Source of the DNA: Saccostrea cucullata
Lineage: Eukaryota
Assembly: GCF_032062105.1 (NCBI RefSeq)
Contig: NW_026922193.1
Location: forward strand, 124,001-188,000
Direction: 5' to 3'
DNA length: 64,000 nt
The position numbers and the translations under genes were made by a program. Numbering within the stretch: position 1 is the stretch's first letter; each line of letters starts with the position of its first letter. This document shows positions 4,801 through 6,531 of this stretch, piece by piece. The notes below the pieces were generated by a model. That model had not been told where the DNA came from. It was given only the letters and a program-made list of their open reading frames with translations, and searched no databases.

Positions 4801-6531
4801 TTAGGATTCATCTTCTTCCTCCTCGCTATCGTCATCCTCTCTCTCTTGGTCTTCGCTTTCGGAAGCATCGTCGATCTCCATATCACTCTCAGGATCCCAC
4901 ATTTCTTCAAGGACGGGACGATTCTTATTCAAAGCCATTCTGATGGCTCTGCGTTCGTCATAGCCTTCAGACAGGAAATCTTTAACATCATCCATGACCT
5001 TGGTGTGAATGGATCCGTTTTGTAACTGTAAGATGTACAGGATGAGTTGTCCATATTTTTCTGAGAATTTCTTCAGGTCTTTTGAGTTCATTTTTTCCTC
5101 CGTTTGAACTCTGGCGTCTTGTCGTGATAGACCTTCCTTTATGTATTTATCATATTTCAGGTCCCATAGTTTTTCGTTGTCTTCTTTTGCCCTTTCCATG
5201 AGAAAGTTAAAGACTTCGTGTTCGTCATCATTTTCTTTCTCTGGTTTGACAGGGGAGGCATTTGCCTCATCCATCTCCATGGGGGCAATATCATCTTTCC
5301 TTTGTCCGTTTTCGGGACACCATCTTTTCACATGTCTTTGAAGGTCGTGGACGTTCTCAAAGACCAGACCACAATCGTCACAGGAAGGCATATCTTCTGT
5401 AGGTATGACGTGTTGAAATTCCGACCCAAGGGATTGGTTCGTTGAAGGAACCGATGCGTGGTATGTCCGATCGGTAGGAATATCTGTCAGAGAATGAGGG
5501 GAATTCTCTGCTCCTTGCTGTTTTATAGGATTCAAGACATCATTGGATTGATAGGTTGAAGGAACCGACCCGTGGTACGACCGATCGGGAGGAATATCTC
5601 TCGAAGAATGATGGAAATTCTCTGCTTCTTGCTGTTTGATAGAATTCAAGACGTCAGTGCGCATGCGCAGGTGTTCGGGTGTAGTGGGCTTCAAATCCAC
5701 CAACAGGTATCCATAAGGTTTGGAAGTAGCGTCTTTGAAATGTCTCAGCAGGTGTTGAGGATTTTCGGGATACATCTGTCGAGCCAAGGTCATAACTTGT
5801 TGTCTGTCCACAGGATTGTTAAACAGGACCAGGTAATGGCAATTTCGTCTCTGCGTGGGATCTTTGTTGTAGTATAGGTTTTGATTGATGGCTATGACGG
5901 ACATATTTCTGTGATGACTACCCTCCGTAAACAATTCGTTGATTCTGGAATCTTTGGAAGCCGTAGACATCAGATCATCCAAAATAACGAGATTCCTCAA
6001 TCTGGGATGTATAAAGGAATCTTGATCCAGATCCAAAGGTATTCCTTGAATAAATTCGACCTTGGGATAAATGGTACTCTGAATGACATCATACAGTGGT
6101 TGCCAACGTTTGTAGAGCCATATGATTCTCTCGGGAGGAGACCATATTATTTTCAGGCAGTGTTGCAAGAGCAGTTTACAGAAATACGTCTTGCCACAAC
6201 ACGTGGGGCCAGAAATATTCGCAGTAAAGGGATGCCTGAAGACAAAGTCCTGGTGCCGTTGCTGTAAAGGAAGAGTTGCTGATGGAGGCGGCGGTGGCTT
6301 GAGTTGCGGCGGCGGCGGCGGCGGCGTGATCATCTGCAGCGGCGGCGGTGGCTTGAATGGCGGCGGCGTGAATTCCGGCGGCGGTGGCGGCGGCGGTGTG
6401 ATCACCTGCGGTGGCGACGATGGTGGTGGTGGCTGCATTCCCATCATTCCGTGTACACTTCGCTGATGCCGCTTTAAGACATCCTTTCGGGAAAACCAGC
6501 CTTGGCAATCGTCGCACTGGATTTTATGCAT
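4801..6531 (-). CDS. A32/FtsK-like genome-packaging ATPase fused to two C2H2/C2HC-type zinc fingers, a poly-Pro linker and an acidic tail (576 aa)
   Basis: Walker A GPTCCGKT, Walker B LVILDD, SHHRN, INQN, PYGYLLVDL; fingers CDDCQGWFSRKDVLKRHQRSVH and CDDCGLVFENVHDLQRHVKRWC; ATG at 6531. Confidence 0.88.
   Translation of the reverse strand: MHKIQCDDCQGWFSRKDVLKRHQRSVHGMMGMQPPPPSSPPQVITPPPPPPPEFTPPPFKPPPPLQMITPPPPPPQLKPPPPPSATLPLQQRHQDFVFRHPFTANISGPTCCGKTYFCKLLLQHCLKIIWSPPERIIWLYKRWQPLYDVIQSTIYPKVEFIQGIPLDLDQDSFIHPRLRNLVILDDLMSTASKDSRINELFTEGSHHRNMSVIAINQNLYYNKDPTQRRNCHYLVLFNNPVDRQQVMTLARQMYPENPQHLLRHFKDATSKPYGYLLVDLKPTTPEHLRMRTDVLNSIKQQEAENFHHSSRDIPPDRSYHGSVPSTYQSNDVLNPIKQQGAENSPHSLTDIPTDRTYHASVPSTNQSLGSEFQHVIPTEDMPSCDDCGLVFENVHDLQRHVKRWCPENGQRKDDIAPMEMDEANASPVKPEKENDDEHEVFNFLMERAKEDNEKLWDLKYDKYIKEGLSRQDARVQTEEKMNSKDLKKFSEKYGQLILYILQLQNGSIHTKVMDDVKDFLSEGYDERRAIRMALNKNRPVLEEMWDPESDMEIDDASESEDQEREDDDSEEEEDES

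Follow-up and report, generated by a model that had tools for sequence, protein, structure and literature searches.

The element and its genes

Within the window, the whole 64,000-nucleotide stretch of Saccostrea cucullata DNA that was analysed, a 5,279-bp element is flanked by a perfect ATTAAG target duplication and carries only three genes, which encode an integrase, a long packaging-type ATPase and a likely penton (Table 1). The element has the terminal inverted repeats, AGTAGT-type ends, 6-bp target duplication and rve integrase (Pfam rve, 42.9 bits, above the cut-off of 32.6) of Polintons/Mavericks. No polymerase, double jelly-roll major capsid or maturation protease gene was found within the 5,279 bp, which leave no room for a capsid gene. 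Since it is without a protein-primed polymerase, we regard the element as a non-autonomous Polinton derivative and not as a full member; a 12-kb family with the same ends has a protein-primed family B polymerase (DNA_pol_B_2, E = 4e-47), the region of which consists of three open frames with short gaps, possibly introns. A reading of the long ATPase as a host gene was ruled out by its location between inverted repeats and by its dispersed copies with target duplications. Elsewhere in the window there are broken frames at 12454-13992, which from their translation we take to be LINE-type endonuclease/reverse-transcriptase, and dispersed arrays of a ~166-bp repeat at 32408-42583.

Table 1. Features of the element and of its long ATPase (positions in the window)
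Feature	Position	Strand	Remarks
Whole non-autonomous Polinton-type element	2656..7934	.	5,279 bp; AGTAGT...ACTACT ends
Target-site duplication, left copy	2650..2655	+	ATTAAG (6 bp)
Target-site duplication, right copy	7935..7940	+	ATTAAG (6 bp)
Left terminal inverted repeat	2656..3350	+	~5.7 copies of 99-bp unit (2757-3330)
Right terminal inverted repeat	7258..7934	-	~5.8 copies of 99-bp unit (7258-7833)
rve integrase with C-terminal chromodomain	3501..4598	-	365 aa
Likely penton (minor capsid, PX)	6598..7026	-	142 aa
Long packaging-type ATPase	4801..6531	-	576 aa; open frame
Finger 1, C2H2	6451..6516	-	aa 6-27; helix R-1/D+2/R+6
Pro-rich linker	6244..6441	-	aa 31-96
A32/FtsK-type ATPase core	5641..6243	-	aa 97-297
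In-frame tandem duplication in second linker	5441..5656	-	114 nt; common to 12-kb polymerase-bearing family
Finger 2, C2HC	5317..5382	-	aa 384-405; net acidic
All-helical domain, family-specific	4888..5226	-	aa 436-548; no clear fold match
Acidic tail	4804..4887	-	aa 549-576

The 142-aa protein has no match in Pfam, PDB sequences or phage records; it is likely to be a penton because it is 45% identical to the product of a gene that lies one gene away from the major capsid gene (capsid family 2, same genome) and has a profile match to a 325-aa PX-like protein (probability 88.9, E = 2.4e-6). When the penton matches in the genome were split by identity, none of the 29 window-like ones had a family-2 capsid gene within 5 kb, versus 34 of the 44 distant ones, and capsid-less pentons formed a separate branch (8 rows, SH-aLRT 100). 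For two window-like pentons (G000:C19753:75849-76256 and C4628:2496-2903), the fetched stretches contained no match to an ATPase, an integrase or a capsid. The two capsid-coding Polinton families of this genome (G000:C6239, C13789 and C17537) have penton-like genes of 135 aa and 325 aa, together with accessory genes whose translations presumably represent IAP, macro-domain and PC4-like proteins.

Architecture of the long ATPase

The preliminary description of this locus had read the 576-aa frame as a C2H2 finger, a proline linker, an ATPase, a C2HC finger, a helical domain and an acidic tail, and that order was borne out. Finger 1 scored 27.4 bits against Pfam zf-C2H2_4 (cut-off 27) and has the pattern C-x2-C-x12-H-x4-H with Arg -1, Asp +2 and Arg +6, a set of helix residues shared by 31 of 39 homologues. 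Arginine at -1, aspartate at +2 and arginine at +6 are linked to GNG-type sites, and by these residues finger 1 looks like a DNA-reading finger. The linker that follows it is proline at 32 of its 66 residues. The ATPase core has Walker A (GPTCCGKT, 108-115) and Walker B (LVILDD, 181-186) motifs with conserved Gln and Arg residues downstream; its match to Pfam Pox_A32 (E = 2.5e-4, 21.1 bits) lies below the cut-off of 22.8. The best PDB matches of the modelled core in a fold search were the B204 packaging NTPases of STIV/STIV2, and among the viral models that it matched were those of A32-like ATPases, of adenovirus IVa2 and of an adintovirus FtsK. In both Walker motifs, the Gln and Arg residues and the fold, the core agrees with the A32/FtsK-HerA group, and its catalytic residues are 96-100% conserved.

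Finger 2 (C384-x2-C387-x12-H400-x4-C405) keeps its four ligands in all 85 of 85 aligned sequences. An AlphaFold model built on this 85-sequence alignment (mean pLDDT 78.4, pTM 0.49) has confident domains, with a predicted pLDDT mostly above 92 across the helical domain, and is of low confidence in both linkers and in the tail, where 18 of 28 residues are D or E. A fold search with finger 2 and the helical domain gave generic helical bundles (best Z 6.9; none with Z of at least 8), a result that neither names nor excludes a fold for the helical domain. The same region had no match to viral models under E = 0.001, and a search of the ESM Atlas with the helical domain of a Mytilus homologue gave no usable match. 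An alignment-free prediction of a complex between the integrase and finger 2 plus the helical domain scored 0.07, which speaks neither for nor against such a contact.

Distribution of the fusion in bivalves

A homologue search returned 370 proteins, and the best 120 of these included proteins named from Pecten, Mizuhopecten, Argopecten, Pinctada, Mytilus, Mya, Ruditapes, Mercenaria and Solemya. Among the query and these 120, the core, finger 2 and helical domain occurred together in 104 of 121 proteins and all four parts in 30, a search with a full-length, 576-aa query being one that favours fusions; finger 1 was present in 35 of the 53 proteins with room for it before Walker A. In the reverse search, made with the C-terminal part (150 matches), an ATPase preceded it in 35 of the 38 matches with at least 100 residues upstream, whereas the short matches may be either broken copies or separate genes, which are indistinguishable. 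ATPase and C-terminal part were also together in 51 of 51 metagenome loci, although the search patterns were drawn from ATPase columns and this count is therefore not independent. The IMG/VR database gave 48 pattern matches, among which no relative was confirmed. Among the proteins examined, the fusion is the usual form across a broad bivalve family and is not special to the copy in the window.

The long ATPases, with two fingers and a helical domain, are 500-630 aa, versus ~210-280 aa for compact ones, and the core of the window protein is 41% identical to a compact ATPase of the same genome. The preliminary description had taken compact ATPases to be usual, in agreement with the lengths in two capsid-coding families (278 aa and, from the first Met, 212-213 aa). 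Of the two observations that it named as speaking against its reading, one, a fusion that is standard in autonomous mollusc Polintons, has been made, as polymerase-bearing bivalve elements of 8-12 kb carry the fusion too. In a tree of 46 rows, the branch that splits off the long ATPases had 95/88 support; a single origin was left open in a smaller tree under a simpler model (p-AU 0.47). The ATPase core shares 82% identity with a Pecten protein and 50-62% with some co-resident lineages, a pattern that is suggestive of an undated horizontal transfer.

Association with capsid-less elements

Among 150 ATPase matches in the genome, 55 were classed as long type and 89 as compact by identity and rank, with the last 6 left out. 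A major capsid match of the first family lay within 20 kb of 62 of the 89 compact matches versus none of the 55 long-type ones, and the second capsid family was likewise found near none of the 55. One family-2 capsid lies 22.5 kb from a long ATPase, where it adjoins its own integrase and penton. The helical domain was adjacent to 40 of the 55 long-type matches versus none of the 89 compact ones. Because these capsid searches scored the best candidates only (the best 131 of 333 and the best 131 of 281), a direct tblastn comparison with the fetched loci is more telling; three queries for capsids and two for proteases, run against loci L021-L171 and positions 1-20,000 of the window, matched capsid-coding loci only. 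With a profile of the helical domain, no match below E = 6.9 was obtained among 24 loci that code for capsids or have a compact ATPase. In this genome, the long ATPase marks capsid-less elements.

Outside this genome, the evidence for such confinement is thin: a capsid gene was found in none of the 51 metagenome loci, most of which are shorter than 5 kb, and an integrase lay beside the ATPase in 18 and a polymerase in 6. One metagenome contig of 10.6 kb holds a polymerase, an ATPase and an integrase only.

Carriers and their ends

Window-type ends bound two sorts of element, those of 11-19 kb with a polymerase, a long ATPase and an integrase, and window-like ones of 3.7-7.3 kb; nearly all of the 13 elements with both ends recovered have their own target duplication. 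More distant carriers of 8-9 kb also have a polymerase, a long ATPase and an integrase, and most of the polymerase-bearing carriers examined are without a penton. In 6-kb elements (C21304, C11044 and C2211; for example, G000:C21304:75016-81188 and C11044:166696-172656), the long ATPase is the sole marker gene found, between inverted repeats of ~2 kb that are up to 99.75% identical and hold two 99-bp units per arm, and target duplications are present. The smallest carriers, 3.3-kb elements with target duplications (C10384 and C13399), encode a penton and a long ATPase; the gene that comes after the penton in the capsid-coding family survives in them as a weak remnant (E = 2e-4 to 0.017). The target duplications show that these elements have transposed as units. 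Four loci (L133-L136) have similar ends and no marker gene, and the ATPase is therefore not needed in cis for movement.

The ends of the 6-kb and 3.3-kb carriers match those of capsid-coding Polintons over 54 of 59 nt and 90 of 98 nt, respectively. Among five ends compared, those of the window element matched only the 12-kb family (113 of 119 nt) and neither of the two capsid-coding ends tested; no capsid gene with window-type ends was present among the loci examined. The 99-bp repeat occurs in the window family, in the 12-kb family and in the ATPase-only 6-kb elements, where it flanks the ATPase gene, and was absent from the other long-ATPase lineages and capsid-coding loci examined; among the genome matches scored, it is nearly confined to the element family of the window. 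The single-strand fold of the unit has nothing unusual (z 0.38). Across nine subterminal regions, no shared 7- or 8-mer was found beyond A-rich words.

The polymerase of long-ATPase elements belongs to one of two widely different types, which have been swapped several times (G000:C10477, C19158, C9476, C19478 and C5146); a single clade of type-b polymerase carriers was rejected (p-AU 5e-5).

Selection and recombination

Between capsid-less sub-lineages, penton dN/dS is 0.12-0.20. Among 10 copies of the 5-kb family, pN/pS was 0.37 for the penton (95% interval, 0.21-0.63), 0.32 for the ATPase core (0.23-0.44) and 0.24 for the helical domain (0.12-0.44), and it was 0.22 for the integrase in 7 copies, where ~0.55-0.8 is expected under neutrality with transition bias (0.64-0.78 for the comparison with the penton); these within-family ratios partly reflect older history, because the disordered second linker also has a low ratio (0.36; 0.20-0.76) and the copies recombine. 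The ATPase, helical domain and penton are under purifying selection despite the missing capsid gene. Several copies are broken. RNA reads were negligible on both strands (19 in 12.8 million and 35 in 11.3 million), too few to speak of expression.

The copy in the window is itself a fresh recombinant (positions 5441-5656 and 3501-5400) with the duplicated linker of the 12-kb family. From Walker A to finger 2 it spans 828 nt, whereas the distance was 714 or 716 nt in 8 further copies of the 5-kb family. Its helical domain resembles that of the 12-kb family more closely, and the identity of the window copy to this family drops from 93-99% to 72% across the ATPase gene. Its finger 1, proline linker and penton came from another lineage.

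Interpretation

We propose, with a probability of about 0.5, that the long ATPase is the hallmark of a bivalve lineage of capsid-less Polintons that would live as satellites, borrowing a capsid from capsid-coding Polintons and loading their own DNA with their own finger-bearing motor. A satellite had already been suspected in the preliminary description, and this part of it fits the results, since the element has no polymerase or capsid gene, the fusion was absent from the capsid-coding Polintons examined and reduced carriers share the ends of those Polintons. The broader statement, that bivalve genomes hold Polintovirus satellites, some as small as 3-6 kb, which keep nothing but the packaging vertex, a finger-armed motor with or without a penton of their own, to commandeer helper shells, has in our estimation slightly less than an even chance of being correct. 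It can be envisioned that the ATPase core would still pump DNA at a capsid vertex, and that the motor ring would present several copies of finger 1, which could grip DNA by avidity. Finger 2 and the helical domain may replace a separate genome-selecting factor, and the retained penton would become part of the shell taken from a helper. For replication, the window element would further depend on a polymerase supplied in trans, most likely by the 12-kb family, whose ends it shares.

How such a motor would recognize its DNA is a different matter. The preliminary description had assigned this role to both fingers, as readers of the element's own 99-bp terminal repeats, and there are grounds for the idea: the helix of finger 1 is of the DNA-reading type, the 99-bp unit is nearly confined to the element family and recurs in the distant ATPase-only 6-kb elements, and finger 2 is identical in the window element and the 12-kb elements that share the repeat. 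However, the 12-kb family has the same ends and repeats with a finger 1 that is only 27% identical to that of the window and sits on a poly-Gln linker, finger 2 is acidic, and one zinc finger reads only about three bases. Given the divergent finger 1 and the lack of the repeat in the remaining long-ATPase lineages examined, recognition of the 99-bp unit at the ends is not a rule of the family, and with no short word shared beyond A-rich ones, we consider a mechanism in which both fingers are specific for the repeat quite improbable. The signal read by the motor is probably not the 99-bp repeat family-wide, although it is possible that the unit is read by finger 2 or locally. The linker appears to be a spacer, since its chemistry is free (Pro or Gln) and its length varies among copies.

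Other explanations can be considered. The elements could be pure transposons in which the fused ATPase has been repurposed within the cell and aids excision, replication or target capture, as transposition-regulator ATPases do. In favor of this view, the commonest carrier has a polymerase, an ATPase and an integrase and no virion gene; ATPase and integrase remain adjacent while the polymerase type swaps, and finger 2, the helical domain and the integrase have travelled together in the window recombinant. This co-travel is also explained by linkage, however, and intracellular repurposing accounts neither for a penton lineage under selection without a capsid gene nor for ATPase-only elements with the ends of a capsid family; we judge it unlikely. 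Alternatively, the ATPase and penton could poison or divert Polintovirus assembly in favor of the elements or the host, in keeping with the facts that both kept genes encode predicted vertex components and that the minimal elements share ends with capsid-coding ones. A mere poison would not require conserved catalytic residues, and the copies are dispersed with target duplications of their own, as in selfish spread, so that interference or defence seems to us highly improbable. Equally small is the chance that the carriers are one part of a split virus, the missed partner of which has capsid and protease genes and no ATPase. Within the 20 kb fetched for one locus, C19158 (L153-L154), there are matches to an integrase, a penton and a capsid and none to an ATPase or a protease, and the capsid searches extended to the best 131 candidates for each family; yet a compact ATPase of their own is present in the other capsid-coding loci that were fetched on the ATPase side, and among the loci examined a capsid gene was not found with window-type ends.

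Comparison with known systems

In its AGTAGT ends, 6-bp duplication, inverted repeats, rve integrase with a chromodomain, A32/FtsK-type ATPase and penton-like gene, the element resembles Polintons/Mavericks. Unlike them, no long-ATPase carrier examined has a major capsid or protease gene, the window copy is without a polymerase, and the ATPase measures 500-630 aa, versus ~210-280 aa, and includes two fingers and a helical domain. The gene content has precedent, because P_Pd1.1 of Platynereis (10,777 bp) and P_Gi1.2 (11,019 bp) were scored as having an ATPase and no capsid, penton or protease (PMC4028283, Table S1). The same study, in the part used here, reported that nine elements had lost capsid, protease and ATPase in concert (Krupovic et al. 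2014, PMC4028283), and that part describes no fusion, family or selection for its capsid-less Polintons. Loss of the capsid with selection on motor and penton breaks the concerted-loss pattern as given in those sections of PMC4028283 and argues for borrowed shells.

Neither the fusion nor such satellites are mentioned in the accessible portions of PMC8097293, PMC8502044 and bioRxiv 2023.08.22.554363, 2023.10.06.561300, 2025.04.19.649669 and 2025.02.07.637071, nor are they described in the titles and opening lines of abstracts in the literature surveyed; Repbase, the Polinton/Maverick papers of 2006-2007 and the bioRxiv supplements fell outside this scope and may hold them. Polintons that are without a capsid gene and in which genes for the packaging vertex are kept under selection are apparently an undescribed lineage. 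A survey of corals required capsid, penton and ATPase (bioRxiv 2023.10.06.561300); finger 2 with the helical domain is a cheap marker for elements that screens based on the capsid are bound, by their design, to leave out. The long ATPase also provides a tractable protein for the study of how Polinton-type motors choose DNA.

Adenovirus IVa2, a related packaging ATPase by fold match, binds packaging signals that recur beside the terminal repeat, near the genome end, and the excerpt of PMC4189039 on which we draw has it serving its own capsid together with L4-22K and describes no zinc-finger fusion. Within the limits of that excerpt, IVa2 offers a precedent for the binding of repeated signals close to a genome end by a related motor. 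According to the relevant passages of PMC8097293 and bioRxiv 2023.08.22.554363, no virions of Polintons have been observed.

If our proposal is correct, these elements would be an animal counterpart of the phage satellites that redirect packaging, and they would provide indirect evidence for Polinton virions in bivalves. Phage satellites such as the PICI/SaPI group, with its small terminase, and P4 are capsid-less integrating elements that redirect packaging and borrow a shell. The likeness, which is one of analogy only, would lie in the retention of the part that confers packaging specificity while the shell is borrowed. The phage satellites differ in being bacterial and in relying on tailed-phage machinery and unrelated proteins, whereas in the bivalve elements the whole motor, and sometimes the penton, has been kept.
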